IMG/VR virus record: IMGVR_UViG_3300045988_168513
DNA from: a virus
Reading direction: 5' to 3' (one strand)
Length of the DNA: 32,956 nucleotides
Positions 1-32,956 of this stretch are shown in pieces. The position numbers and the translations under genes are program-made. Within the stretch, counting starts at the first letter, position 1. Each line of letters starts with the position of its first letter. Below the pieces are notes generated by a model, which saw only the letters and a program-made list of their open reading frames with translations, was not told where the DNA came from and ran no database searches.

Positions 1-55
1 TAGTTTTTTATATAATTCTGTATTCGTTTCCATGTCGTTCATGTTACATTAAAGC
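1..55. repeat. Terminal 55-bp sequence identical to 32902..32956 (circular-closure overlap or terminal redundancy)
   Basis: Bases 1-55 (tagttttttatataattctg...catgttacattaaagc) recur exactly at 32902-32956. Minus-strand genes are contiguous across the junction: the erf ATG lies 1 nt after the stop of ORF 44..1246. Confidence 0.9.
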
Positions 56-1246
56 TCCACTCTCATGTATGTGCTTAATCATGTCTATGTACATCCAGTA
101 CTCCTCGATTTCTTTGTCCGAGTAATTATTTGAACGCCCTATATTTTCATAGTTAGACAGCCATTCGAAAATCGTATATTGCTTACAGCCGATTTGTATA
201 GCGTCGCAACCCCAATAAGTAATCGTATGACGGGAAGCGTGTATGCAAAGAGTATGTTTAACTTTGCAGCCGTTGCCCAGCTTGCAGCTGTCGCCCAGCT
301 TGCAGCCGTAGCCCAGCTCGCAGTCGTTGCCCAGCTTGCAGCCGTCGCCCAACTCGCAATCGTAGCCCAGCTTGCAATCGTAGCCCAGCCAGCAGCCGTA
401 GCCCAGCTTGCAGCCGTTGCCCAGCTTGCAGCTGTTGCCCAGCTTGCAGCCGTCGTCCAACTCGCAGCCGTAGCCCAGCTTGCAGCCGTCGCCCAGCTCG
501 CAGTCGTTGCCCAGCTTGCAGCCGTCGTCCAACTCGCAGCCGTCGCCCAGCTTGCAGCCGTCGCCCAGCTCGCAGTCGTCGCCCAACTCGCAATCGTAGC
601 CCAGCTTGCAGCCGTCGCCCAGCTTGCAGCTGTCGCCCAACTCGCAGCCGTCGCCCAGCCAGCAGCCGTAGCCCAGCTTGCAGCTGTCGCCCAGCTTGCA
701 ATCGTAGCCCAGCCAGCAATCGTAGCCCAGCTTGCAGCTGTCGCCCAGCTTGCAGCCGTCGCCCAGCTTGCAGCTGTCGCCCAACTCGCAGCCGTCGCCC
801 AGCCAGCAGCCGTAGCCCAGCTTGCAGCTGTCGCCCAGCTTGCAGCTGTCGCCCAGCTTGCAATCGTAGCCCAGCTTGCAATCGTAGCCCAGCTTGCAGC
901 CGTCGCCCAGCTTGCAGCCGTTGCCCAGCTTGCAGCTGTCGCCCAACTCGCAGCCGTAGCCCAGCTCGCAGTCGTTGCCCAGCTTGCAGCCGTCGTCCAA
1001 CTCGCAGCCGTAGCCCAGCTTGCAGCCGTCGCCCAGCTCGCAGTCGTAGCCCAGCCAGCAGCCGTAGCCCAGCTTGCAGCCGTCGCCCAGCTCGCAGTCG
1101 TTGCCCAGCTTGCAGCCGTCGCCCAGCTCGCAGTCGTTGCCTATCCGAATGTTGCGTATTGAAAATTCATGTGCTAAATCGGACAGAACATCGTATTCAA
1201 ACAACACCCATCCCTTGTCGGAATCATACAGATATAGCGTTTTCAT
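44..1246 (-). CDS. Cys-hexapeptide repeat protein, (C-x-L-G-x-x)x48, predicted left-handed beta-helix, with a Cys/His C-terminal domain shared with 30137..30751
   Basis: 400-aa ORF. Residues 39-326 are 48 consecutive hexapeptides C-[KEW]-L-[GD]-[DYN]-[GDS], fitting the hexapeptide-repeat consensus [LIV]-G-x-x-[small]-x with Cys in the small-residue slot. The N-terminus (38 aa) and C-terminus (74 aa, ..SRHTITYWGCDAIQIGCKQYTIFEW..) are unique. Confidence 0.8.
   Translation of the reverse strand: MKTLYLYDSDKGWVLFEYDVLSDLAHEFSIRNIRIGNDCELGDGCKLGNDCELGDGCKLGYGCWLGYDCELGDGCKLGYGCELDDGCKLGNDCELGYGCELGDSCKLGNGCKLGDGCKLGYDCKLGYDCKLGDSCKLGDSCKLGYGCWLGDGCELGDSCKLGDGCKLGDSCKLGYDCWLGYDCKLGDSCKLGYGCWLGDGCELGDSCKLGDGCKLGYDCELGDDCELGDGCKLGDGCELDDGCKLGNDCELGDGCKLGYGCELDDGCKLGNSCKLGNGCKLGYGCWLGYDCKLGYDCELGDGCKLGNDCELGYGCKLGDSCKLGNGCKVKHTLCIHASRHTITYWGCDAIQIGCKQYTIFEWLSNYENIGRSNNYSDKEIEEYWMYIDMIKHIHESGALM
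269..1144. repeat. 18-bp tandem repeat array (about 48 units, coding)
   Basis: The plus strand reads gcagccgtcgcccagctt and close variants (gcagctgtcgcccagctt, gcaatcgtagcccagcca, gcagccgtcgtccaactc, and others) head to tail. Variation is confined to a few positions. Blocks of units are duplicated internally (units 18-22 versus 26-30). Confidence 0.95.
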
Positions 1247-1601: not shown

Positions 1602-2465
1602 CTATTCCAATTCGGCGATAATTCGTTTTTCACGCTCGGATAATTCCCAGACGATGACCGTCGCTTGCTTCGCCGCCTGCTTCGCCGCCTGCTTCGCCGC
1701 CTGTTCGTAAGCCTCGATTTTTCGCGCCGTGGCCTTATCCGAAAGGAGATATCCGCCTCCATAAACACCTCCCCCTTTCTGGTTATCGAGTTTGCGGACC
1801 CTTCGACATTCTGACGCCCGCACCTCGAATTTGACGTAAGGGGCTATCTTGCCCAACAATGCGGCGGATACCACATTGTCCGGGTAAATGTATTTTGGCA
1901 AATCCATAAGTCGTCGCTTCGTTTTTGCGGCATTTTTGATGCGGGCGAGCAGGTCGGGCGCGGTCATTATACGGATGTCGCCGAAAAGGTTGCTGGCGAA
2001 CGACGTAGCGACGCATGCCCCGTTTTCGTATGTCACCCGAGCGGCGCATACTATGCCCGTCCAATTCATGTCGACCGGACAGAGCAACGTTAGATGCGGC
2101 GCGAACAGAAAAAAGGATATGTCGCGAGACTGAAAAAAGCGGCACACCTGCGTAAATATCGAAAAGGGAGGATTATCGACCACCACGCAGCCGTCCGGAT
2201 AATCGTAGTGTTCGTAATCGCCGCCAGGCCAGAAGGGCCGCACGATTTCCCGCCCTTCTATGTCAACATTTTCCCGGAGCCATCCAAGGACAGCATCGTA
2301 AACCGGAGGTGGCGTGTAGCAGTCATCCGTCGTTTTTCGGGGCTTGAATTTCGCCACAAAACCGTCATAGTCCTCGTGTATCTCCCGTCTCGATTTACGG
2401 GTCGCCGTATCCCGCCGTGGTTCATCGGCGAAGAGAGAACCTTGTATATTCACGTCGTTAATCAT
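1602..2465 (-). CDS. putative N6-adenine (amino) DNA methyltransferase, phage Dam-like, orphan
   Basis: 287 aa with VVDNPPFS (motif IV, [DN]PP[YF]) preceded by DDCYTPPPVYD. There is no neighbouring endonuclease gene. C-terminal (AAKQ)3 tract. Confidence 0.6.
   Translation of the reverse strand: MINDVNIQGSLFADEPRRDTATRKSRREIHEDYDGFVAKFKPRKTTDDCYTPPPVYDAVLGWLRENVDIEGREIVRPFWPGGDYEHYDYPDGCVVVDNPPFSIFTQVCRFFQSRDISFFLFAPHLTLLCPVDMNWTGIVCAARVTYENGACVATSFASNLFGDIRIMTAPDLLARIKNAAKTKRRLMDLPKYIYPDNVVSAALLGKIAPYVKFEVRASECRRVRKLDNQKGGGVYGGGYLLSDKATARKIEAYEQAAKQAAKQAAKQATVIVWELSEREKRIIAELE
1667..1702. repeat. 12-bp tandem repeat x3 (gcttcgccgcct)
   Basis: Three perfect copies at 1667-1678, 1679-1690 and 1691-1702, encoding AAKQAAKQAAKQ near the methyltransferase C-terminus. 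Confidence 0.9.
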
Positions 2466-2526
2466 TTTTTATTCGCACAATCCGTAAAAGCTCATGCAAC
2501 TCGTCGCCGTGTCGTCGTCGAACAGA

Positions 2527-2559
2527 CTGCATTTCCAGCCGGTAACGAAGACGCGGACG
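2527..2559. repeat. 33-bp direct repeat, left copy (ctgcatttccagccggtaacgaagacgcggacg)
   Basis: Identical in sequence and orientation to 3413..3445. Abuts the recombinase stop codon at 2561-2563. Confidence 0.95.
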
Positions 2560-2560
2560 G

Positions 2561-3211
2561 TTAATAGATACCGCGCTCCCATCTACCATTCCTTGATTTT
2601 GTTGGTGTTCTTAGCCCAGTGTATGCTAAATAGCGATATAGGGTTCCTCTTGCAATTCTCAATTTCTTAGCTATTTGTGGTACACTTATTCCTTTTTCCA
2701 TTTGACTCTCTATGTATTTGTGCTTAGCCACACATTTTGCGTTCAACTGTTTATTGCGTTGACCTTGACCTCTACCGACTGGATGTCCTTCCTTTTTTAA
2801 TCGAGCAAGGGCTTCTTTTGTTCGTTGAGAAATCAGATTACGTTCTATCTCTGCTGACAATCCAAAAGCAAAGGCAAGAACTTTACTTTGAATATCATCG
2901 CCAAGACGGTAATTATCTTTAATAGTCCAAACGCGACTCTCTTTGGTCATGCAAATGTTGAGTATTTCCATTATCATAAAAAGATTACGACCAAGCCGAG
3001 ACAGCTCCGTACAAATTATCAAATCGTCTTTGACAATTCGATTCAAAAGTTTACCAAGTGCTCGTTTGTTATAATTTTTAGTACCAGAGATAGTTTCTTC
3101 AATCCATCCATCTATAGTTAGACCTTCTTTTTTACAGAAACGCTCTATCTCGAAGCGTTGATTTTCCACCGTCTGTTTGTCTGTGGAAACACGGATATAG
3201 CCATATACCAT
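2561..3211 (-). CDS. small serine recombinase (resolvase/invertase family)
   Basis: 216 aa. N-terminal catalytic domain with YGYIRVSTDKQ (Ser nucleophile), ELSRLGRN and AEIERNLISQRTKEAL. C-terminal HTH ISVPQIAKKLRIARGTLYRYL. Confidence 0.9.
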   Translation of the reverse strand: MVYGYIRVSTDKQTVENQRFEIERFCKKEGLTIDGWIEETISGTKNYNKRALGKLLNRIVKDDLIICTELSRLGRNLFMIMEILNICMTKESRVWTIKDNYRLGDDIQSKVLAFAFGLSAEIERNLISQRTKEALARLKKEGHPVGRGQGQRNKQLNAKCVAKHKYIESQMEKGISVPQIAKKLRIARGTLYRYLAYTGLRTPTKSRNGRWERGIY

Positions 3212-3260
3212 TTTTAGATATATACCTCTTTTGTTTTGAAAAACAAAGGTTTTAGAGGCA

Positions 3261-3365
3261 TTATTTGTCGAACGCGAGAATCCTCGCCGGACGGCCGGCG
3301 CGCGTCATCACGGGGGCCCCGGCCTTGGCGGCCTCTAAATCGAAAGGTTTGAATTTATATTCCAT
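3261..3365 (-). pseudogene. 34-codon GC-rich ORF (MEYKFKPFDLEAAKAGAPVMTRAGRPARILAFDK), probable 5' remnant of a phage gene carried inside the cassette
   Basis: A GC-rich island inside otherwise AT-rich cassette DNA. The reading frame stops abruptly at TAA just upstream of the recombinase promoter region. Confidence 0.3.
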
Positions 3366-3412
3366 ATCTATTTCTTTATTAGATAAATAATCCTGTTCAT
3401 AATCCACCGAGC

Positions 3413-3445
3413 CTGCATTTCCAGCCGGTAACGAAGACGCGGACG
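3413..3445. repeat. 33-bp direct repeat, right copy
   Basis: Identical to 2527..2559. Confidence 0.95.
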
Positions 3446-3493
3446 TCTCTCCAATACGGTAATCCCTTCCATATTAATTTCATTTTAAACCTG

Positions 3494-3573
3494 CGGAACC
3501 GCGGGGATTCGAACCCCGACCTCACCCCAAAAATCTACCGAAAAAGGTGCGTGCCCATTTACACTTCGGTTCC
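3494..3573 (-). tRNA. tRNA-like gene with a canonical acceptor, D-arm and T-arm but a 17-nt anticodon loop (isotype not assignable)
   Basis: Minus-strand fold: a 7-bp Watson-Crick acceptor stem (GGAACCG/CGGTTCC), AA, D-arm GTGT-AAATGG-GCAC, G, stem CACCT/GGGTG enclosing TTTTCGGTAGATTTTTG, variable AGGT, T-arm CGGGG-TTCGAAT-CCCCG, discriminator G. No CCA is encoded. Confidence 0.45.
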
Positions 3574-3644
3574 ATTTCACCGCGGGCCTCGCGGATGACG
3601 GTGAAAAAATAATAACCTTCTTTTCTGACTATGGAACAAACGGT

Positions 3645-3977
3645 TTATCGTTCATTTCTCCAGTATCTTTTAAGTTCCTTGCCTGTAAAAACCTTCCTGC
3701 CTTTGGCATTGAAACTACACCTTATCCGCCCCGCCCTTAAATGAGTGCGTAATGTATGCGGACATATCCCGAGCACCTTCGCCGCCGCCGTTATGGGATA
3801 CCGTGCGCTGTCCGATATACTGGGGTCCTCGAATACCATAACCTTATCGTTTAAGACATTCTCGTAACAACAACTATCCGTTGTCCGAGCCCCGACGTGT
3901 GTTTGCTCGTTGTATATCTCCGGTCTAAATTTTGCGAAACCAGATAACATGAACTTTTTATCGTGGTGTACTTGCAT
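3645..3977 (-). CDS. helix-turn-helix DNA-binding protein (MerR/excisionase-type HTH), possibly the C-terminal part of a longer frameshifted product
   Basis: 110-aa ORF with ..YPITAAAKVLGICPHTLRTHLRAGRI... Its 5' end overlaps ORF 3851..4072 in the -1 frame. Confidence 0.6.
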   Translation of the reverse strand: MQVHHDKKFMLSGFAKFRPEIYNEQTHVGARTTDSCCYENVLNDKVMVFEDPSISDSARYPITAAAKVLGICPHTLRTHLRAGRIRCSFNAKGRKVFTGKELKRYWRNER

Positions 3978-4072
3978 TCGGAAAGGTTGAAAGCAACAGC
4001 CTCCCCCACTTCAAGCGCCCGTATCTGCCCCATCACATTGCCGCGAGTTATGTGTTCTTTGCTCATTCCCAT
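3851..4072 (-). CDS. first ORF of the leftward arm (N-terminal 39 codons look genuine)
   Basis: ATG at 4072 lies 40 nt downstream of a TAnnTTTG box. The sequence after ..ECKYTTIK looks non-protein-like, while the -1 frame continues as a plausible protein. Confidence 0.4.
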   Translation of the reverse strand: MGMSKEHITRGNVMGQIRALEVGEAVAFNLSECKYTTIKSSCYLVSQNLDRRYTTSKHTSGLGQRIVVVTRMS

Positions 4073-4111
4073 ATATTTATCATATTTGTATATCTCCCTT
4101 GATTACAGGAA

Positions 4112-4119
4112 CAAAGATA
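4112..4119 (-). promoter_or_regulatory. candidate Bacteroidota-type -7 promoter box (TATCTTTG) for the leftward arm
   Basis: Matches TAnnTTTG on the minus strand, 40 nt upstream of the ATG at 4072, in the AT-rich divergent intergenic region. Confidence 0.3.
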
Positions 4120-4207
4120 AAGCGTTGCTTTGAATTTTGCAAACAATTTTTCAAAAAAAAGATGCCTGCTACTGCTTTTTTTCGCTCATAATTATTGTTT
4201 TTATTTG

Positions 4208-4215
4208 TATTTTTG
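4208..4215 (+). promoter_or_regulatory. candidate Bacteroidota-type -7 promoter box (TATTTTTG) for the rightward arm
   Basis: Matches TAnnTTTG, 27 nt upstream of the terS ATG at 4243. Confidence 0.3.
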
Positions 4216-4242
4216 TAGTAAATAATAAGATAAAATAAAACA

Positions 4243-4692
4243 ATGGGAAAGTATTCTCAGGAGAAAATAGAAGAATGTGCCGCATGGGTACGCAAAAACG
4301 GGCTGATTGAATACGGAGGCGGCACGGTCGTCGCTTTATGTAAGGCATGCGATATCCATTTCTCGACCTATTACGACTGGCTCGAACGGCCCGAATTCCA
4401 CGAGGCTATAAAAAAAGCGAAAGAGGAATATCGCGAGGGGCTGGAAAAACGGATAGTGCATTCTCTTGCCACAGCCGCTGAGGGTTTTGAATGGACGCAA
4501 ATTGTTACACAAAAGACGGGAAACGGAGTGGTGAAACAAATAACCGAGAAGACGATGCGCGAAGCCCCCAATGTTGCTGCCTGTATTTTCCTTCTGACAA
4601 ATCTTGACCCGGAAAAATGGAAGAACAAGCAATCGAGCGAATTGGCCGGCCGCGTAGACGTTAATCAGATAACAGGTATGAAAGTAATATGA
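4243..4692 (+). CDS. terS: terminase small subunit (putative)
   Basis: 149 aa, the first gene of the late arm and directly upstream of terL. N-terminal HTH-like segment and a ..LLTNLDPEKWKNKQ.. segment typical of small terminases (pattern recognition only). Confidence 0.6.
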   Translation: MGKYSQEKIEECAAWVRKNGLIEYGGGTVVALCKACDIHFSTYYDWLERPEFHEAIKKAKEEYREGLEKRIVHSLATAAEGFEWTQIVTQKTGNGVVKQITEKTMREAPNVAACIFLLTNLDPEKWKNKQSSELAGRVDVNQITGMKVI

Positions 4693-4865
4693 TGACAGTC
4701 GTTTGGATAATATTACCGTTCGCCGTAATCGGTCTGGGAGCCATATGCGGCGCTGTCGCGCCGATAATATATCGCCGTATCGTCGGTGGATGGGAGGCTC
4801 ACTTATTCAAGCGCTGGAAGCGTCTTGAAGCGAGATACAGACGGAAATATGGAACTGACGTTTGA
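4692..4865 (+). CDS. small membrane protein, 57 aa (below the ORF-track cutoff)
   Basis: MTVVWIILPFAVIGLGAICGAVAPIIYRRIVGGWEAHLFKRWKRLEARYRRKYGTDV: one hydrophobic helix followed by a basic tail. Its ATG overlaps the terS stop (ATGA) and its 3' end overlaps the terL ATG at 4849. Confidence 0.3.
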   Translation: MTVVWIILPFAVIGLGAICGAVAPIIYRRIVGGWEAHLFKRWKRLEARYRRKYGTDV

Positions 4866-6195
4866 CACGCGCGGAAATGACAAGCAGAAAGAATGCGCTC
4901 GGCTGTGGTGCGACAACTCCGTAACAGAAATACTTTACGGAGGCGCCAAAATGGGCGGCAAATCTTTTCTCGGATGTTCTTTGATTTTTGGAGATGCGCT
5001 CACGTATCCTGAAACGTACTATTTTATTGCGCGGCAAAATCTCACCGACCTCGTGCGTTTTACAGTTCCGTCTATTCATGAAGTTCTGAATGCATGGGGG
5101 GTTGATTCTTCGCAGTATGTGACGTACAACGGGGCATATCACTATTTCGAGCTGTATAATGGTTCTCGCGTGTATTTGATTGAAGCGAGTTATAGGCCTT
5201 CCGACCCGCTGTACATGCGGTTCGGCTCGATGCAGATGACGCGCGGATGGATTGAAGAGGCTGGAGAATTTTGCAGGGCGGCTAAATCCAACCTTATGGC
5301 TACTTTGGGACGCAAAAATAACGAACGCTACGACCTGTCAATAAAATTGTTACAAACATGTAATCCGTCGAATAACTATTTGTACAACGATTATTACAAG
5401 CCCTACCGCGACGGGACATTACCGTCGCACATCCGTTTCATCCAAGCGTTTATTTCAGACAATAAGACGGCTACGCAGGAATACATCGAAAATCTGCGAC
5501 AAGCTCTCACCCCCGCAGAACGAGAGCGTCTGCTGTACGGACGTTGGGAGTTTGATACAGACACGAGATTACTGGTGGATTATGACGCCGTATGCGACGC
5601 ATTTACAAACGATTTCGTGAACGAGGGTGACCCATATATATCGGCAGACTTGGCCGGAGGCGGACGCGATACGTGCGTAATAGCTCTGTGGCATGGCGAC
5701 GTCTGCCGCTTTCCGTTCGTGAAAAATAAGACGGGCGGGAAAGATATTGAAACAGCGATACAGAGAATTGCGACAGAAAATAACGTGCCCAGGTCGCACA
5801 TAGTGGCTGACGCGGACGGTCTGGGATTTTTTCTTGAGAGCTATATGCGCGGCATAAAGGAGTTTCGCGGTGGTTCAAAAGCAATACATGACACATACGC
5901 TTCGCTCAAGGCCGAATGTGCATATAGATTGGCCGAAAAAATAAATAAACGTCAGATACGCATAGATTGCCCGCCCGAGTATGCCGAACGCATACGCACG
6001 GAGCTTATGCAGCTGAAAGCGGCTGACGTGAACACCGACAATAAGCGCGCTCTCATAAAAAAAGAGGAAATGAAACAGGCATTGGGGCATTCGCCGGATT
6101 TTTTAGACACATTAATTATGCGGCAGTTTTTCGACATACACGACAAAGCGGAGGGGGCTCGTTTCTCGCCGCTGCAAATACCTAAAAAAAGATGA
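4849..6195 (+). CDS. terL: terminase large subunit
   Basis: P-loop GGAKMGGKS and acidic WIEEAGE motif, with size and position typical of TerL. The track ORF opens at GTG 4786; the first ATG is 4849. Confidence 0.85.
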   Translation: MELTFDTRGNDKQKECARLWCDNSVTEILYGGAKMGGKSFLGCSLIFGDALTYPETYYFIARQNLTDLVRFTVPSIHEVLNAWGVDSSQYVTYNGAYHYFELYNGSRVYLIEASYRPSDPLYMRFGSMQMTRGWIEEAGEFCRAAKSNLMATLGRKNNERYDLSIKLLQTCNPSNNYLYNDYYKPYRDGTLPSHIRFIQAFISDNKTATQEYIENLRQALTPAERERLLYGRWEFDTDTRLLVDYDAVCDAFTNDFVNEGDPYISADLAGGGRDTCVIALWHGDVCRFPFVKNKTGGKDIETAIQRIATENNVPRSHIVADADGLGFFLESYMRGIKEFRGGSKAIHDTYASLKAECAYRLAEKINKRQIRIDCPPEYAERIRTELMQLKAADVNTDNKRALIKKEEMKQALGHSPDFLDTLIMRQFFDIHDKAEGARFSPLQIPKKR

Positions 6196-7682: not shown

Positions 7683-10082
7683 ATGGCATACTGTCTGAAA
7701 AAACCGAAACCAATATGTTCAGCGTACGAGGAGACGGAACTCGTATTGCAAACTGACAAAGGACTGTATGAGTGGGCGCAAGCACATCAAAATGATACAG
7801 AAGGAGTTAATATTCTACCGTTAAAAACATCCAATGCAGATGTTGAAATGCCTGTGGGTAGCTCGGCTATGCCGGCCGGCCAACGTCAATTACCGACATT
7901 ATTTTCAAGAATAGATACGTCCGGACTTACCAGAATATCAACAAGTGGAGTGAGCAGCATAATACCGTTTACAATAGGGAAATATTACAGTCTTGGTATC
8001 AATAAATTAAGTATTAAAACGAGCCCCACAAATAACAATTTTGCGGGGGGACGCGTGGAATTGATAATAGACCAAACATTCGGTGATGCATTATGGAATT
8101 TAAACATAACGCCATCTCGCAACTTTGTCGATTATATAGAGCGAGCATATATCAATGCTAATCAATTATCTACCGTGAGATATCCGGACATGCAAGCTGC
8201 TTTATGTACACAATTTATTGTTCAAAATCCATTTAAGGATGGAACCAACGCATGGACAGGCCCTGGACTAACTGCATGGTTTAATTTCAGACATTGTATT
8301 GGTGTTCCTCAATCTTTTGACTGCACAAACAGACCTTTAGGGTACGTTGAAGTATCACAAATTATGCGCAATAGTAATTCGTTGGGAATAGAATTAGTGT
8401 TTAATATAGACAATATTGCAAATGATGATTTAGTACATCCTTTAGTAATTTATGAAGACGAACTGTCGCAACCAGTTGACGTAATAGGTTTTAAAAAAGG
8501 CAAATTAGTACGACACCAAGATTCATCTACTACTATTGACGTTGTTTTAAAAACATTAAATCATATTGTTATTTGGACAGACACAGCTGCAGTTACATCA
8601 GGAGGCGCAGGAATTATGCGTATCGATTTTAACGGAACCACTATTTATAATGGGGATGTTAGTTATAATGTTTATAGTAATATTAAAAAGATATGGTTAG
8701 GTGGCTCAGCTGACGGTAGTTTATACATGGGCGGTCATATTTATTATGTGCGTACTTTGAATACAAATTGGAATATAACCTATGTGCGGAGAAACATGTA
8801 TTACGATGGTAAAATGCTCGATACGATAATTCCTTATGCATTAACATCCCGATTTGAGGTAAGAGATATTTATAGATACGGTTATACGGGAGATTTTCAG
8901 CCATGGTTCTATTCCGGCGAAACGACAATGCGCTCATCTGTGTCTGACGGTTCGAGGCAAGCGATTCTTTATCCATACGACAATTCTTTTTTAGTAGATT
9001 ACAAAACGCCGGAAAGTCCCGGCGCCTCACCAAAAGGATTCCTGTTAATGTCGGTCACGGCTGGCAAAATAATGATAAATACCGGAAATGATTATTTGCC
9101 GTATCTTCCATCGCCTGCTGATTTGCTCGATTCATTATCGCCTACAGACACGACATTACCGACAATTACGGTGAATGTTAAACAATCTGATGAAAGTACT
9201 CATACTGTGATATTATCTTCAGAAGCGGACACAGCCGGTAAAGTGAGATATGATTTAGGATGGATATTTAAATCATCGTTTTTCAACATACGTTCCGGAT
9301 ATTCTGACAACAATTTATACGGGAATTACACTGTTAACAACATTCCTGGGGAAGATACAGCACAAGAAAATGCAAGAAGATTATTCATGCGCCACATATC
9401 TCAGTATGGACATATTAGCGATATGCAAACAGAAAATGCAGCAATGCTTATGTCTCCTGCATGTTGGGTATGGTATGAAGGATATCCGCTCGACATGGTT
9501 ATAAATACAAATACGTTTTCTTTCGGTCCATTTCTATATTGGAAAACGTTTAATAGTGCATATAAAGCTATGCAGATTCCTGTAGGGGTAAGTATGGTAG
9601 ATTTAACAGATACTGAAAGTTGGGAACTTAGAAATTCGTATATTTCATTCCAATATTTTACACCAAAATATCATTGCCGATTAGGATGTATTCCAGATAA
9701 CCCTTTTTATATAAGATGGATAAATGAAAAAGGAGGATACGATTTCTGGATGTTCAAGTCATATCCATCGGACGAACAGGAGATTGAAGATATCATAAAT
9801 ACACTACCCTATCCTTCCGACCAATACCGCATATGGCATCGCGCAAGTGCCATAGGTCGCAAGCGTATAACGGTAGGCGACGGATTGTTAACACGCGAAG
9901 AATTTGAGTGCTTGAAATTCATACCCCGCTCCCCTCTCGTTGAATGGTATGACGAAAGCATCGGCAAATGGCAGCCGGTCGTATTCGAAGATTCGATTTC
10001 CGTAACATGGAATAGCCGCTCAGGACTTGGGGATATAGAATACACATTTACGCTACCGCCAATCAGATTACAGCAGCTATGA
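7683..10082 (+). CDS. large virion structural protein (799 aa), candidate tail/host-recognition protein
   Basis: Long ORF in the structural arm. The central part is markedly AT-rich (about 35% GC) relative to its ends and to neighbouring genes. No catalytic motifs seen. Confidence 0.55.
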   Translation: MAYCLKKPKPICSAYEETELVLQTDKGLYEWAQAHQNDTEGVNILPLKTSNADVEMPVGSSAMPAGQRQLPTLFSRIDTSGLTRISTSGVSSIIPFTIGKYYSLGINKLSIKTSPTNNNFAGGRVELIIDQTFGDALWNLNITPSRNFVDYIERAYINANQLSTVRYPDMQAALCTQFIVQNPFKDGTNAWTGPGLTAWFNFRHCIGVPQSFDCTNRPLGYVEVSQIMRNSNSLGIELVFNIDNIANDDLVHPLVIYEDELSQPVDVIGFKKGKLVRHQDSSTTIDVVLKTLNHIVIWTDTAAVTSGGAGIMRIDFNGTTIYNGDVSYNVYSNIKKIWLGGSADGSLYMGGHIYYVRTLNTNWNITYVRRNMYYDGKMLDTIIPYALTSRFEVRDIYRYGYTGDFQPWFYSGETTMRSSVSDGSRQAILYPYDNSFLVDYKTPESPGASPKGFLLMSVTAGKIMINTGNDYLPYLPSPADLLDSLSPTDTTLPTITVNVKQSDESTHTVILSSEADTAGKVRYDLGWIFKSSFFNIRSGYSDNNLYGNYTVNNIPGEDTAQENARRLFMRHISQYGHISDMQTENAAMLMSPACWVWYEGYPLDMVINTNTFSFGPFLYWKTFNSAYKAMQIPVGVSMVDLTDTESWELRNSYISFQYFTPKYHCRLGCIPDNPFYIRWINEKGGYDFWMFKSYPSDEQEIEDIINTLPYPSDQYRIWHRASAIGRKRITVGDGLLTREEFECLKFIPRSPLVEWYDESIGKWQPVVFEDSISVTWNSRSGLGDIEYTFTLPPIRLQQL

Positions 10083-12107: not shown

Positions 12108-15086
12108 ATGGCTACCGAAACAAGAGAAACCGTATATAACATTAAACTGAATGCGACCGAGGCAATCGCTACAGCGGCAGAGCTACAGCAGAAAATAGAC
12201 GGAATTAAAGAAGCTATGAAGCAGGAGGCGGCGCAAAATGGGAAAGGCACTATCGCGTATCAGCAAAAGGCCGCCCAATTGAAAGTACTTACTGCCCAAT
12301 ACAACTCATACAGTAAGTTTGCTGTCAACTCTATGAAATTAGAGGGGCAACAGGCAGATGCGCTTAAAGCCATGCGTTTGCAAGTGTCATTACTTACACA
12401 GGAATACGACGGTTTGGGCAAGGCGGAAAGAGAAGCGGCGCAGGGAACTGAACTGCGTGACCGCATCGCAGGACTGACTGCGGAACTCAGCAAGCAGGAA
12501 CAGGCGCTGGGCAATTTTCGCCGCAACGTCGGTAACTACGGCAGTGCATATAATGGATTGAATATTCAGGCACAACAACTGGTACGCGAATTACCATCCC
12601 TCACTGTTAGCGCTAATCAGTTTTTCCTCGCCATCTCGAACAACCTACCGATGTTTTTTGACGAGATACAGAAAGTGCGTATGGAGGCTGCAGCCCTGCG
12701 AAAGGAAGGTAAGGCCGCACCGTCTGTGATAAAAACGGTGTTGTCGTCATTTCTGTCCATGCAGACATTGTTAGCAGTGGGCGTTACACTACTTGGGCAA
12801 TACGGAGGCGAAATAGTAAAATGGATAGGCGAACTGTTAAAGGGGAAAAACGCGGCGGACAGCACGGCGGCCTCCATGAAAGCATTAAATGAAGCAATGG
12901 ATTTCAGCGGGCTCGGCAAACAGATTGCGAATATCAATTTACTCGCCGATGCATGGGCGAGATTGGGCGATGATGCAGAAGCAAAAGCGGGATTCATACA
13001 AAAATACAAGGACGAGATAGCAGATACGGGACTTGCCATAAACGACGTGAACGATGCAGAGGCGGTATTCGGTTCCCCCGCATCTACGCAAAAAGTCATA
13101 GATGCAATGGTCGCACGTGCGCAGGCTGCTGCATCACTGAAACTGTATGAAGAGCAGATAGCGGAGGCTATAGAATATCAGGCAAGGGCACGGCAACTGG
13201 CACAAGAAAATAGCGAACGGGAGGAGAAACGAATACAGAATTGGGCTAACGCCAATACTTTGCTCGGTCAATCATTTGTATTCTTAGGAAATAATATAGG
13301 CCGTAATTTCGATTTGACAGCTGACCGCGCAGAAAGGCTGAACTACAATGCTGACAAGGCTTTCTCAAGGGCCGAAAATTATCTGACGTTCATAAACGAA
13401 CTTACAGCCACGGCCGCCGAAAAATCCTCGGAACTCGCTGTGGGCTTTGCAGAAGATGCAGAAGACGCGGGCAAGACCGTAGACCAGCTGGCTTCCAAAT
13501 TCGCAGGAAATATCGTAAAAATCCAACAGGAAATGGTTAAAACTCTCAATGAAGGGAGCAGACAGGGCGAGATACGGCAGCTAATGCACGAATATGCGGA
13601 AACTCTCAAGACGTTAGAGGATACGGTTGCCGAATATGAAAAAATAGATTTTGGCAACCTGTCCCAGGAGGAGGCTGCAGCCGCAAAAACAGCCTACGAG
13701 GAGGTGTTGGCAAATTTATTGGTATATCGCGACAAGTTAGCCGAAAACCTTGCAAAAGATATTTCCGAAGTCAATAAGAAATACGACAGGCAAGAATTCG
13801 AAGCACTGAGTATTCTTTACCGCCGGCGCATTCTGGAAGCCGGGAACAATGCCGCGGAACGTCTGAAAATCGAATTGGAGGCTTTTGAGGCAGAGAAGGA
13901 GATGCTGGAGAAGAACGGGGAGGAGACGATAGAAGTAGACGAGAAAATCGCCAAAAAGCAAAATGAAATCCTTAAGGAACGGCTGAAAACTTTGCAGGCA
14001 ATAGTATCGCAGGAGGCAGAAGAGATGAAGGAGGGTAGCATCGAGCGTCTGCAACTGGAACTACAGGGCATGCAGGAAGAATTACGCCTCCGTCAACAGC
14101 TCGGAGAAGATACCGTTTCGTTGCAGCGGGAAATAGCTAATCAAGTATTGGCTATCGAGCGTGCTGCATGGCTGGAGGGATATGAAATCGACAACAGCAA
14201 TTACGTAACCCGATATCGGACGACGAAAGAACGGTTGCTCCAGGAATTGGAACTCCATAAAGGAGAGGCGGAAGAGATAAAGAGAATCAGGCAGGAGCTG
14301 GCTCAAAACGAGGAAGAATTTCAAACTAAACTTCGGGACGATATATTCTCCATTGCCGACCAAATAAATGAAGTTTTCAATGGTATTACCGACCTAATTT
14401 CTTCGCAGGTAGAACAGCAAGTGGCATCTATCAACGACACGTATGATAAGGCAGAACAGAATTTGGCCGACATGTACGCACGCGGGGCCTATACGGAAGC
14501 CGAATATAACGCGGAAAGTATGCGGCTGCAAAAAGAGCGGGAGGATGCAATAGCCGAAGCCCGTATCAGAGAGGCGAAAGCCGAACGGGCTGCATCCGTA
14601 TTTTCAATTACGGTAAGCACTGCACAGGCAATCGTGCAGGCGTGGACACAGGCGCAGGCAAATCCCATAGTGGCCGGGATACTTACCGGGCTCATATCGG
14701 CGGCAAGCGCACTGCAAATGGCTGCCGTATTGTCTGCCCCGCTTCCTACCGCCTCCCGCGGCCGTTACATTCATGGACGCACCCATGCACAGGGCGGAGA
14801 AGTTATTGAAGCTGAGGCCGGCGAGGTAATTATCAACAGGCGTTCAACGGCCAGATTCCTCCCCCTACTGTCTGCCATCAATGAAGCGGGCGGAGGTATT
14901 CCATTTGCCTCCGCCGGATACGATGGCGGATATGTTATGAGACACGCAGGAATGGATATCAATCCTAACATCGAACAAGCTATTGCTAAAGCTCTTAATT
15001 CTGTGAAAATAGTAGCAACTATCCAGGACATTAAAAGACAGGAAGCAAACTATATGAAAATACAATCAAACAAAGTATTATTATAG
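12108..15086 (+). CDS. tape measure-like protein (992 aa)
   Basis: Largely Ala/Glu/Lys/Gln-rich coiled coil with hydrophobic segments (LLAVGVTLLGQYGG, IVAGILTGLISAASALQMAAVL) and a C-terminal GGEVIEAEAGEVIINRRS..LLSAIN motif resembling tape-measure C-termini. Confidence 0.6.
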   Translation: MATETRETVYNIKLNATEAIATAAELQQKIDGIKEAMKQEAAQNGKGTIAYQQKAAQLKVLTAQYNSYSKFAVNSMKLEGQQADALKAMRLQVSLLTQEYDGLGKAEREAAQGTELRDRIAGLTAELSKQEQALGNFRRNVGNYGSAYNGLNIQAQQLVRELPSLTVSANQFFLAISNNLPMFFDEIQKVRMEAAALRKEGKAAPSVIKTVLSSFLSMQTLLAVGVTLLGQYGGEIVKWIGELLKGKNAADSTAASMKALNEAMDFSGLGKQIANINLLADAWARLGDDAEAKAGFIQKYKDEIADTGLAINDVNDAEAVFGSPASTQKVIDAMVARAQAAASLKLYEEQIAEAIEYQARARQLAQENSEREEKRIQNWANANTLLGQSFVFLGNNIGRNFDLTADRAERLNYNADKAFSRAENYLTFINELTATAAEKSSELAVGFAEDAEDAGKTVDQLASKFAGNIVKIQQEMVKTLNEGSRQGEIRQLMHEYAETLKTLEDTVAEYEKIDFGNLSQEEAAAAKTAYEEVLANLLVYRDKLAENLAKDISEVNKKYDRQEFEALSILYRRRILEAGNNAAERLKIELEAFEAEKEMLEKNGEETIEVDEKIAKKQNEILKERLKTLQAIVSQEAEEMKEGSIERLQLELQGMQEELRLRQQLGEDTVSLQREIANQVLAIERAAWLEGYEIDNSNYVTRYRTTKERLLQELELHKGEAEEIKRIRQELAQNEEEFQTKLRDDIFSIADQINEVFNGITDLISSQVEQQVASINDTYDKAEQNLADMYARGAYTEAEYNAESMRLQKEREDAIAEARIREAKAERAASVFSITVSTAQAIVQAWTQAQANPIVAGILTGLISAASALQMAAVLSAPLPTASRGRYIHGRTHAQGGEVIEAEAGEVIINRRSTARFLPLLSAINEAGGGIPFASAGYDGGYVMRHAGMDINPNIEQAIAKALNSVKIVATIQDIKRQEANYMKIQSNKVLL

Positions 15087-30136: not shown

Positions 30137-30751
30137 TTACGCCAGCCCGAACTTCACGCGGATAACATGCGCTATGGCCAGATATTCGCGGGCATACTGA
30201 CTATCGCCGTGCGTATGCCGTACTTTCGCCTCGAAAGCCTCTATATCGCCGTGGAAACAGCCGCATGTTATTTCGACACCGCCGTCCGACGTGCGGTAAG
30301 CGTGCGTATGCCTGCCTATGCTGCCGAATACGTCGAATCCGCAGTGGTCGTCATTGCCGGCTACCCGTGCATTGCCGTACACCCGTGCATTGCCGTACAC
30401 CCACGCATTGCCGGCTACCCGTGCATTGCCGTACACCCGTGCATTGCCGTACACCCACGCATTGCCGGCTACCCGTGCATTGCCGGCTACCCGTGCATTG
30501 CCGTACACCCACGCATTGCCGTACACCTGCGCATTTTCGTACACCCGTGCATTGCCGTACACCCGTGCATTGCCGTACACCTGCGCATTTTCGGACACCC
30601 ACGCATTGTCGGATAGGTTGTCCTCTTTTTCGATGAATCCGCCCAAGTCACCCGCATTTGCCCATTTGCAGTCACGCGTGCAGCGTATGCGGTGGAGGGT
30701 CTTGCCGTCCACTTCTATCGTTTCATCGGTCAGCTCGAAATTTTTTTCCAT
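30137..30751 (-). CDS. hexapeptide-repeat (N-A-x-V-x-G)x14 protein, beta-helix type, with the same C-terminal Cys/His domain family as 44..1246
   Basis: 204 aa. The N-terminus contains ..GDLGGFIEKEDNLSDNAWV... Fourteen units of NA[RQW]V[YA][GE] follow. The C-terminus GRHTHAYRTSDGGVEITCGCFHGDIEAFE aligns with SRHTITYWGCDAIQIGCKQYTIFEW. Confidence 0.75.
   Translation of the reverse strand: MEKNFELTDETIEVDGKTLHRIRCTRDCKWANAGDLGGFIEKEDNLSDNAWVSENAQVYGNARVYGNARVYENAQVYGNAWVYGNARVAGNARVAGNAWVYGNARVYGNARVAGNAWVYGNARVYGNARVAGNDDHCGFDVFGSIGRHTHAYRTSDGGVEITCGCFHGDIEAFEAKVRHTHGDSQYAREYLAIAHVIRVKFGLA
30356..30607. repeat. 18-bp tandem repeat array (14 units, coding)
   Basis: The plus strand reads ccgtgcattgccgtacac / ccacgcattgccggctac variants head to tail. 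Confidence 0.9.
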
Positions 30752-30839: not shown

Positions 30840-31196
30840 CTACAGCCGCTCGACGTCCTGTCTATGGAACTCGTTGGCATAGTTCCTCAACTTCTCGAGA
30901 ATCTCCAGTTCGTCGGCATCGGCATTACCGGCATTTTTTATCCAACTTAAAAAATGAAAACACAACTGGACACGCAGCCGTCTGTCTGTGCGCGCCGTCA
31001 GGGAGCCGCACCACAATGGGAGGCACGACAAATCCAGGTTGGCACCGCTCAGGTAGGCACCGCTCAGGTCGGCTCCGCGCAGGTTGGCTCCGCTCAGGTT
31101 GGCGTCGCGCAGGTTGGCTCCGCGCAGGTTGGCGTCGCGCAGGTTGGCTCCGCGCAGGTCTTTAGACGCGACCAAATCCCTTAAATTATCGTCCAT
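30840..31196 (-). CDS. pentapeptide-repeat protein
   Basis: Nine consecutive A(D/N)LxG-type pentapeptides ([45 protein letters not shown]) followed by a unique 60-aa C-terminus. Confidence 0.85.
31026..31160. repeat. 15-bp tandem repeat (9 units, coding)
   Basis: caggttggctccgcg-type units on the plus strand. Confidence 0.9.
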
Positions 31197-32244: not shown

Positions 32245-32943
32245 TTATGCTGTTTGTTTCTGTTTATATTCCCTGTACAATTCTCCGACGCGGTTAATCT
32301 CGCCGGAAGTAATCCCGGCATACTGTGTTTCCAGCAGCCGGGCGATACTGAATGTATTCCCCGCGTCCCTGCTTTCTGCCTCCTTTTTATCCAGCCACTT
32401 GCAGACGATATTGACACTAACAGGGTCTTCAAGCACCTGCGGATTGAATGTCTTTTTGGACGGGTGTGTCTCCCCGGCCGGCATACTGCCATTCTTTTCC
32501 CGAAGAGCGTCTACATCATCCTCGTCGGTCGGAATATGGAAAAATTTCATCAGGAAATATCGTTCCCCATAGGTCATGGCCGAACCTGCTCCTTTATCCC
32601 AATCGTTCTGCCCGTTCGCTGCCCACTCGCACATCTCCTGCTGCCCGCTCTCCGCATCTATCCAGGTGAAGCGCATTTTTAGCGATGTATGCACCTCCGA
32701 TTTGTCGCGTTGTTCGCGCCCTACCTTGTAATCCTGCCTCGTGTTGACAATATCGACGATTTCAGATTTGAGAAGAAGTCCCAGCTCGTCCATCTTCGGA
32801 CGAACGACACTAAGCAGCTTGTTGCCGGAGACATATTTATAATCACCTGTCCCTCCCTGTTTCTCGGGGAAAAGACCGCGCACGGCCTTCTGCAACTCCA
32901 ATAGTTTTTTATATAATTCTGTATTCGTTTCCATGTCGTTCAT
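32245..32943 (-). CDS. erf: ERF-family single-strand annealing protein
   Basis: 232 aa. ..YKYVSGNKLLSVVRPKMDELGLLL.. and ..GSAMTYGERYFLMKFFHIP.. resemble ERF/SSAP core motifs. Adjacent to the Gp157-like and SSB-type genes. Confidence 0.6.
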   Translation of the reverse strand: MNDMETNTELYKKLLELQKAVRGLFPEKQGGTGDYKYVSGNKLLSVVRPKMDELGLLLKSEIVDIVNTRQDYKVGREQRDKSEVHTSLKMRFTWIDAESGQQEMCEWAANGQNDWDKGAGSAMTYGERYFLMKFFHIPTDEDDVDALREKNGSMPAGETHPSKKTFNPQVLEDPVSVNIVCKWLDKKEAESRDAGNTFSIARLLETQYAGITSGEINRVGELYREYKQKQTA

Positions 32944-32956
32944 GTTACATTAAAGC
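32902..32956. repeat. Terminal 55-bp sequence identical to 1..55
   Basis: Exact duplicate of the window start. Confidence 0.9.

Follow-up and report, generated by a model that had tools for sequence, protein, structure and literature searches.

IMG/VR virus record IMGVR_UViG_3300045988_168513, a stretch of 32,956 nt analysed here at full length and hereafter called the window, carries a small serine DNA invertase gene enclosed by two identical 33-bp direct repeats (positions 2527-3445). This cassette probably reflects a very recent illegitimate capture of a host invertase gene, that is, a phage moron, with the repeats left as a by-product and with loss of the gene possible by ordinary homologous recombination. 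A 0.7-kb piece of host DNA has landed in a hypervariable slot of the phage genome, directly behind codon 20 of orf34, a small conserved gene. It is a host-gene capture of a known kind, here with the invertase of a defence shufflon as the cargo, and it offers a clean and datable case of gene uptake by a gut phage from its host, in which the coding sequence is 100% identical to the host copy, each joint can be placed at single-base precision and a relative with the empty site is available. The window is the complete 32.9-kb genome of a gut Bacteroidales phage in circular assembly: its bases 1-55 are exactly those of 32902-32956, giving a circularly closed genome of 32,901 bp, which contains terminase genes, an ERF annealing protein, a Sipho_Gp157 match and a C5 methylase.

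Host origin of the invertase gene and its joints to phage DNA

The invertase (216 aa) has the architecture of a small serine recombinase, with an N-terminal Resolvase catalytic domain (Pfam PF00239, 2.2e-33, residues 2-143) and a C-terminal HTH_7 domain (residues 172-196). It scores 321.8 bits against NCBIfam NF009949, the Mpi master DNA invertase, for which the curated equivalog cutoff is 272, and its PHROG 125 family is annotated as DNA invertase. The exact protein was found in 9033 index blocks of a public collection, on bacterial contigs of up to megabases, while the cassette had no match among GenBank phages and PLSDB plasmids.

Comparison with ten bacterial loci (L098-L107) showed that positions 2554-3271 are 98.9-99.4% identical to host DNA over 718-722 bp, with homology ending sharply at 2554/2558 on one side and at 3271 on the other; the rest of the region has no match to these loci. 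All 651 nt of the coding sequence are identical to one of them, L098. The GC content of the cassette is 0.33-0.41, against about 0.5-0.6 in its flanks. Both ends are joined to phage DNA through short microhomologies, CGTCCG (6 nt) on the left and TCGA (4 nt) on the right (Table 1). At the right joint, homology to a phage gene termed gene X runs only from 3412 down to 3267, where host homology takes over. Full-length gene X is found in relatives such as L001 (387..809, minus strand), L004, L005, L006 and L009, where it encodes 140 aa when read from a GTG further upstream.

The DNA between the repeats is therefore a composite of about 707 bp of host origin and 146 bp of native phage DNA (3267-3412). 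In the native part, the 3' end of orf34 is followed by the initial 34 codons of gene X, whose frame ends at a stop codon contributed by host DNA; this native sequence adjoins the 33-mer in more than 20 relatives. As only 2554-3271 is foreign, the 33-bp repeats are not the ends of the foreign element.

Table 1 Coordinates of the cassette, its joints and neighbouring features in the window
Feature	Position	Strand	Description
Host-derived segment	2554..3271	-	Invertase gene with about 60 nt of its own upstream DNA and 7 nt downstream; 98.9-99.4% nt identity to L098-L107
Mpi-family small serine DNA invertase, 216 aa	2561..3211	-	Catalytic motif YIRVSTDKQ; Pfam Resolvase and HTH_7, NCBIfam NF009949, PHROG 125
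Left joint	2554..2559		6-nt overlap CGGACG (gene strand CGTCCG), present both in host DNA and at the 33-mer end; falls on the outer edge of the host 17-bp inversion site
Right joint	3267..3271		Gene X homology from 3267, host homology to 3271; TCGA shared (3268-3271), one phage-specific base at 3267
Left repeat copy, 33 bp	2527-2559		Exact match; fragment of an alternative ('type vi') orf34 allele, codons 10-20, without its own start codon; joined directly to the 61-bp alternative 3' end, an arrangement also seen in L112 and L114
Right repeat copy, 33 bp	3413-3445		Codons 10-20 (RPRLRYRLEMQ) of intact orf34
orf34 (MEGITVLERRPRLRYRLEMQARWIMNRIIYLIKK)	3368..3472	-	Small conserved 34-codon gene; intact; stop 2 nt before the gene X ATG
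Truncated gene X	3261..3365	-	First 34 codons from ATG 3365; stop supplied by host DNA
Alternative orf34 3' end, 61 bp (ending SVRRRHGDELHELLRIVRIKND, then stop)	2466..2526	-	Overlaps the start of the downstream gene; identical in L112, 2 substitutions in L114, absent from other relatives
Conserved phage gene, 287 aa	1602..2465	-	DNPPF motif; PHROG 21498, unknown function; called methyltransferase in the initial annotation
tRNA-like gene	3494..3573	-	Oversized anticodon loop; upstream of orf34; Rfam tRNA 43.2 bits; cloverleaf fold
ERF-family single-strand annealing protein	32245..32943	-	Pfam ERF 1.2e-19; neighbouring gene matches Sipho_Gp157

The arrangement is not an assembly artefact. A chimera of the phage and an abundant bacterial element would fit the identity of the segment to very abundant host DNA and the fact that other assemblies break inside it (contig L108 ends k-1 = 118 nt into the host-shared segment), but it is extremely improbable, because no k-mer is nearly as short as the junction overlaps of 4-6 nt, the window contig runs through the entire insert, and both junctions were reproduced at 100% identity in independent assemblies of other samples, the left one in ENA ERZ27256395 (L108) and the right one in ENA ERZ825167 (L109, about 295x coverage).

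The cassette is missing at this locus in more than 20 relatives, among which at least six arrangements of the hypervariable slot were seen, as expected for a capture. The exact 33-mer was recovered in 16 contigs, 15 from scans of IMG/VR and JGI/ENA metagenomes and one, MT835674, from a search of GenBank phages; it is single-copy in each, always with the left flank seen at the right copy of the window, and none of the 15 contigs from IMG/VR and JGI metagenomes carries the cassette. In most of them the order in the minus-strand direction is the 33-mer, the 140-aa gene X and then a homologue of 1602-2465. A rearrangement in the relative L114 uses the same breakpoint as the window, at the 33-mer's left edge. 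An empty site is present in L112 (Logan, ERR14295658), which has the order downstream gene, 61 bp, single 33-mer and tRNA-like gene. This is exactly the product predicted for a repeat-to-repeat deletion of the window, and L112 is 100% identical to the window over 2354-2559 and 3446-4062. The two differ at 17 positions, 13 of them third codon positions, all confined to 2208-2353. L112 is thus a separate mosaic lineage, whose arrangement can equally well be read as the ancestral one.

In the host, the invertase gene sits on a mobilizable element of Bacteroides and Alistipes and adjoins an invertible segment of about 1.2 kb. The exact gene end together with its site was found among species-representative genomes in one Bacteroides and two Alistipes, thereby naming the likely hosts of the phage. 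The constant context of the gene comprises DUF6043, HTH_17, DUF3987, Zn-ribbon/DUF6371, a Mob_Pre relaxase, the invertase, small ORFs, an Eco57I-like enzyme of 1126-1247 aa and an SNF2/PLD helicase, and PADLOC classified the large Eco57I-like enzyme as a Type IIG restriction-methyltransferase. Beginning 3 nt past the invertase stop codon is one arm of a perfect 17-bp inverted repeat (GTCCGTTTTTTGAAGAC); the other arm is about 1.2 kb away. The segment between the two arms lies in one orientation in L098, L099, L100, L104 and L106 and in the opposite one in L103, L105 and L107. Alternative C-terminal ends of the Type IIG enzyme are encoded as cassettes within this segment, and the repeat sequence is translated as VRFLKT. 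Both orientations among genomes and the alternative cassettes indicate that the native role is a gene-altering inversion switch of a defence enzyme, in which the invertase is predicted to flip the C-terminal module of the restriction enzyme. Further internal inverted repeats are present in the host shufflon (about 5650-6900 in L098-L107), namely 65-100 nt at 71-80% identity and 25 nt at 92%. In L102 a deletion (5645-5720) takes out arm 1, and the mixed arrangement of L101 points to at least two inversions.

Mpi-type action on inverted repeats flanking invertible DNA was thus found in the host loci only. The window contains no match to the 17-bp repeat at up to 3 mismatches, its inverted repeats are weak and at chance level, and no pair of inverted sites flanking an invertible segment was detected in the phage genome. 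The captured protein resembles Mpi of Bacteroides fragilis and the Bacteroidales shufflon invertases in passing the NCBIfam equivalog cutoff and in having a host gene beside inverted repeats with observed inversion. It differs from them in that its native target is not capsule promoters but the nearby C-terminal shufflon of a Type IIG enzyme, carried by a mobilizable element, and in that the phage lacks the cognate inverted repeat. Likewise, it shares with Gin of Mu, Cin of P1 and the Hin-type enzymes the form of a small serine invertase with a C-terminal HTH, and with the former a phage-borne location, whereas the window phage has no invertible segment, inverted sites or tail-fibre cassettes beside the gene, and its flanking repeats are direct and are probably not sites of the enzyme.

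Formation of the flanking repeats

We propose that the host piece was joined to phage DNA through the two short-homology joints, CGTCCG and TCGA, and that these joints would have been made with two copies of the phage genome at staggered positions. One copy would have had the gene X arrangement and the other the arrangement of orf34, the 61 bp and the downstream gene, so that the 33 bp common to both would have been left on each side of the insert. Precise loss of the cassette by homologous recombination between the repeats would then produce an L112-type genome with the 3' end of orf34 swapped, for which the ERF protein encoded by the phage is a plausible catalyst. The phage invertase would be without a cognate phage site and, if functional, would act in trans on host inversion sites.

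Features typical of phage morons and of specialized-transduction-type capture are found here: a discrete host gene with its own upstream region, a different GC content and sharp microhomology boundaries, placed in a hypervariable slot and absent from relatives at the locus. Unlike in typical morons, the cargo is a site-specific recombinase from a host defence shufflon, the clade has captured the gene at least twice, one of the two joints coincides with the enzyme's own site, and the 33-bp flanking duplication appears to come from two alternative phage arrangements.

Several points weigh against this account. The sequence of events and which two phage molecules were the parents are matters of inference, not of observation, and L112 could be an excision product instead of an ancestor. 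Moreover, the left joint falls precisely at the outer edge of the inversion site that belongs to the invertase itself, and other rearrangement breakpoints in relatives cluster within 14 nt of that site, so the invertase may have made or provoked the left joint in place of plain microhomology joining.

The initial annotation had interpreted the cassette as a programmed intervening element in the style of skin, fdxN and nifD, from which the serine recombinase excises an 886-bp circle at the 33-bp direct sites and thereby rebuilds a small ORF. Much of its description was correct. The 33-mer, CTGCATTTCCAGCCGGTAACGAAGACGCGGACG, occurs exactly twice in the window, in the same orientation, around an AT-rich serine-recombinase gene; with up to 3 mismatches allowed, neither strand has a further match (0 expected by chance), and hence there is no inverted copy; and the 886-bp repeat-to-repeat unit is an insertion with respect to an actual empty site. 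The repeat is coding, and both quoted translations were reproduced: the frame 3397..3525 (minus strand) contains MKLIWKGLPYWRDVRVFVTGWKC, and 2469..2582 (minus strand) ends with SLFDDDTATSCMSFYGLCE and stops 3 nt before the ATG at 2465. The second frame said to stay open across the rebuilt junction does so as well (3368..3472 and 2458..2589), and its upstream part proves to be the real 34-codon gene.

The claim that the cassette splits a small ORF did not hold. Among seven variant haplotypes of 3361-3490, the frame of orf34 has 13 synonymous and 6 mostly conservative non-synonymous changes, with 16 of 19 changes at codon position 3, whereas the frame put forward earlier (MKLIWKG...) has 12 non-synonymous changes, a stop codon in L116 and L117 among them, and 2 synonymous ones. 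This substitution pattern indicates that orf34 is a real gene and that the MKLIWKG... frame is not conserved. orf34 is uninterrupted in the window, with the same C-terminus as in relatives; it is the 886-bp deletion that would swap its last 14 codons for the alternative 22 codons encoded by the 61 bp. Exact-protein look-ups of the small ORFs created at the junction found nothing on record.

The repeats also do not have the character of deletion sites. Host DNA covers only 2554-3271, so the repeat-bounded unit includes 146 bp of ordinary phage DNA, and the native substrate of the enzyme is the 17-bp inverted repeat that is absent from the phage, where at most one of the four half-sites is native. 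Outside CGTCCG, the 33-mer and the native arm agree at 5 of 12 positions, and the right copy is wholly of phage type, not a hybrid site. The motif ARACGTWCGT, presumably the Mpi core consensus, has 4 matches in the window against 7.35 expected and is therefore not enriched. A serine recombinase that integrates DNA site-specifically would duplicate no more than the crossover core, which is far less than 33 bp. A simple model in which a circle integrated at the 33-mer by site-specific recombination was rejected, because the right copy is phage-type and the duplication extends 27 nt past any plausible crossover core. The repeats are thus better viewed as a putative scar of capture than as recombinase sites, and direct repeats around a recombinase gene need not be its sites, which corrects a tempting over-interpretation.

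Programmed excision is accordingly improbable in our assessment. It accounts for the direct repeats around a recombinase gene, for the existence of the exact predicted product in L112, and for the fact that CGTCCG, the outermost 6 nt of each repeat, is also the outer edge of the native site, with the native outer flank present at the left copy. It is difficult to reconcile with the nature of the enzyme, a 216-aa invertase scoring 24.3 bits against the XisF model (cutoff 375), and L112, with its mostly third-position changes in 2208-2353, is a separate lineage. The likeness to skin/SpoIVCA, fdxN/XisF and nifD/XisA is therefore partial. A recombinase gene between direct repeats in a coding region and the natural occurrence of a precise deletion product are shared with these elements; on the other side, the window enzyme is a small Mpi invertase, not a large serine recombinase (SpoIVCA, XisF) or a tyrosine recombinase (XisA), the repeats are not the true ends of the element, and the supposedly interrupted orf34 is intact.

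Possible contribution of the invertase and repeated capture in relatives

Phage relatives carry a second invertase allele with 87% nt and 97% aa identity to the window copy. These copies sit at other genome positions than the window cassette and are 99-100% identical to L014, which is colinear with the same bacterial mobilizable element, indicating at least two independent captures of the gene by this clade. L014 (IMGVR_UViG_3300014794_000192) is listed as viral, and its whole 8.6-kb locus is colinear at 91-95% with the bacterial Type IIG mobilizable element; it may be misclassified. The captured gene regulates an anti-phage system that is phase-variable, and the captures of the second allele hint at selection for phage control of host phase variation.

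These captures bear on the possibility that the invertase itself assisted the event. It could have formed the left joint, either by recombining the native site with the orf34 look-alike AGACGTCCGC or through a double-strand break at the site, while the right joint was illegitimate; the gene would then promote its own spread, and the 33-bp duplication would still derive from two phage copies. We consider this unlikely, though not negligible. The position of the joint, inside CGTCCG where the 17-bp inverted repeat has its outer edge, fits it, and in Hin-type systems crossover occurs at that outer-edge position of the site. Independent downstream breakpoints of the second allele lie at stop +2, +7 and +14, and the repeated capture of the same gene, together with a tRNA-Thr module inserted inside the arm in L010 and L011 with imperfect arm repeats of 11-12 bp, points in the same direction. 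CGTCCG is, however, no rare target, with 36 occurrences in the window against 18 expected from shuffles (0 shuffles reached 36), an excess that could reflect codon or dinucleotide usage or a motif. In addition, the flanks of the phage look-alike are out of register with the native half-sites, breakpoints just past the stop codon are also expected from selection for compact, intact genes, and the Mpi core consensus used in the comparison is a presumed one.

Other rearrangements were observed around the invertase in relatives. The tRNA-Thr module of about 150 bp, which looks like a site-specific insertion beside the invertase, lies inside the inverted-repeat arm (L010 4652-4883, L011 1150-1381) and is flanked by the direct arm repeats CCGACGTTTTTTTG and GGTCGTTTTTTG; about 60 nt of host shufflon cassette, 100% identical to L014, follow directly after it. 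L004 has a 146-bp perfect direct repeat made of the invertase 3' end (9695-9840 and 12785-12930), L012 an 881-bp direct repeat at 95% identity with two invertase copies (3521-4401 and 5076-5956), and L013 44-bp intergenic repeats on either side of the invertase gene (3939-3982 and 4651-4694). These observations fit either a recombinogenic invertase site in phage genomes or selection that trims captured genes back to their ends.

A broader and rather doubtful scenario is that the clade repeatedly acquires precisely the invertase behind specificity switching of the host Type IIG shufflon. On infection, the phage copy would act in trans on host inverted repeats, scrambling or resetting defence specificity or flipping other Mpi-type invertons, for example of surface structures, and its own site would promote capture and shuffling. 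If this is true, the invertase could in addition excise the cassette between the 33-bp repeats at a low rate, via the hybrid site at the 3' end of the cassette.

Neighbouring genes and tandem arrays

The gene downstream of the cassette (1602-2465) was previously called a methyltransferase, a label that is hinted at by its DNPPF motif only. Its product had no match in Pfam, NCBIfam, PADLOC or a PDB sequence search. The AlphaFold model of the 287-aa protein is poor (pLDDT 50.8), and Foldseek on this model returned nothing at E<=1e-3 and only weak matches to KsgA, Erm and T4 Dam. Its homologues vary from 267 to 320 aa among relatives, and a 12-bp unit present three times at 1659-1703 encodes AAKQ repeats near its C-terminus.

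The tRNA-like gene at 3494-3573, whose anticodon loop is enlarged by about 10 nt, is kept in all relatives; ARAGORN made no call for it. In relatives with gene X, a second similar tRNA-like sequence with an internal insertion was seen by eye between gene X and the homologue of 1602-2465 (L009, roughly 3170-3290), and ARAGORN did not call this one either. An integrase-type island linked to the tRNA was ruled out, as no tyrosine integrase was found among the ORFs tested in the window and the tRNA-like gene lies outside the repeat. A scan of the window for sigma-70 promoters and terminators was uninformative.

Three coding tandem arrays were noted in the window. The hexapeptide-repeat gene at 44-1246 (minus strand, 400 aa) contains about 45 copies of an 18-bp unit, and its counterpart in L108 (1427-1873), an otherwise identical phage from another sample, encodes only 148 aa; the copy number is either highly variable or collapsed by assembly. 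The other two lie at 30298-30657 (18-bp unit, 14 copies) and 31020-31169 (15-bp unit, 7 copies), and the gene annotation of L108 suggests that the second of these is of the pentapeptide-repeat type.

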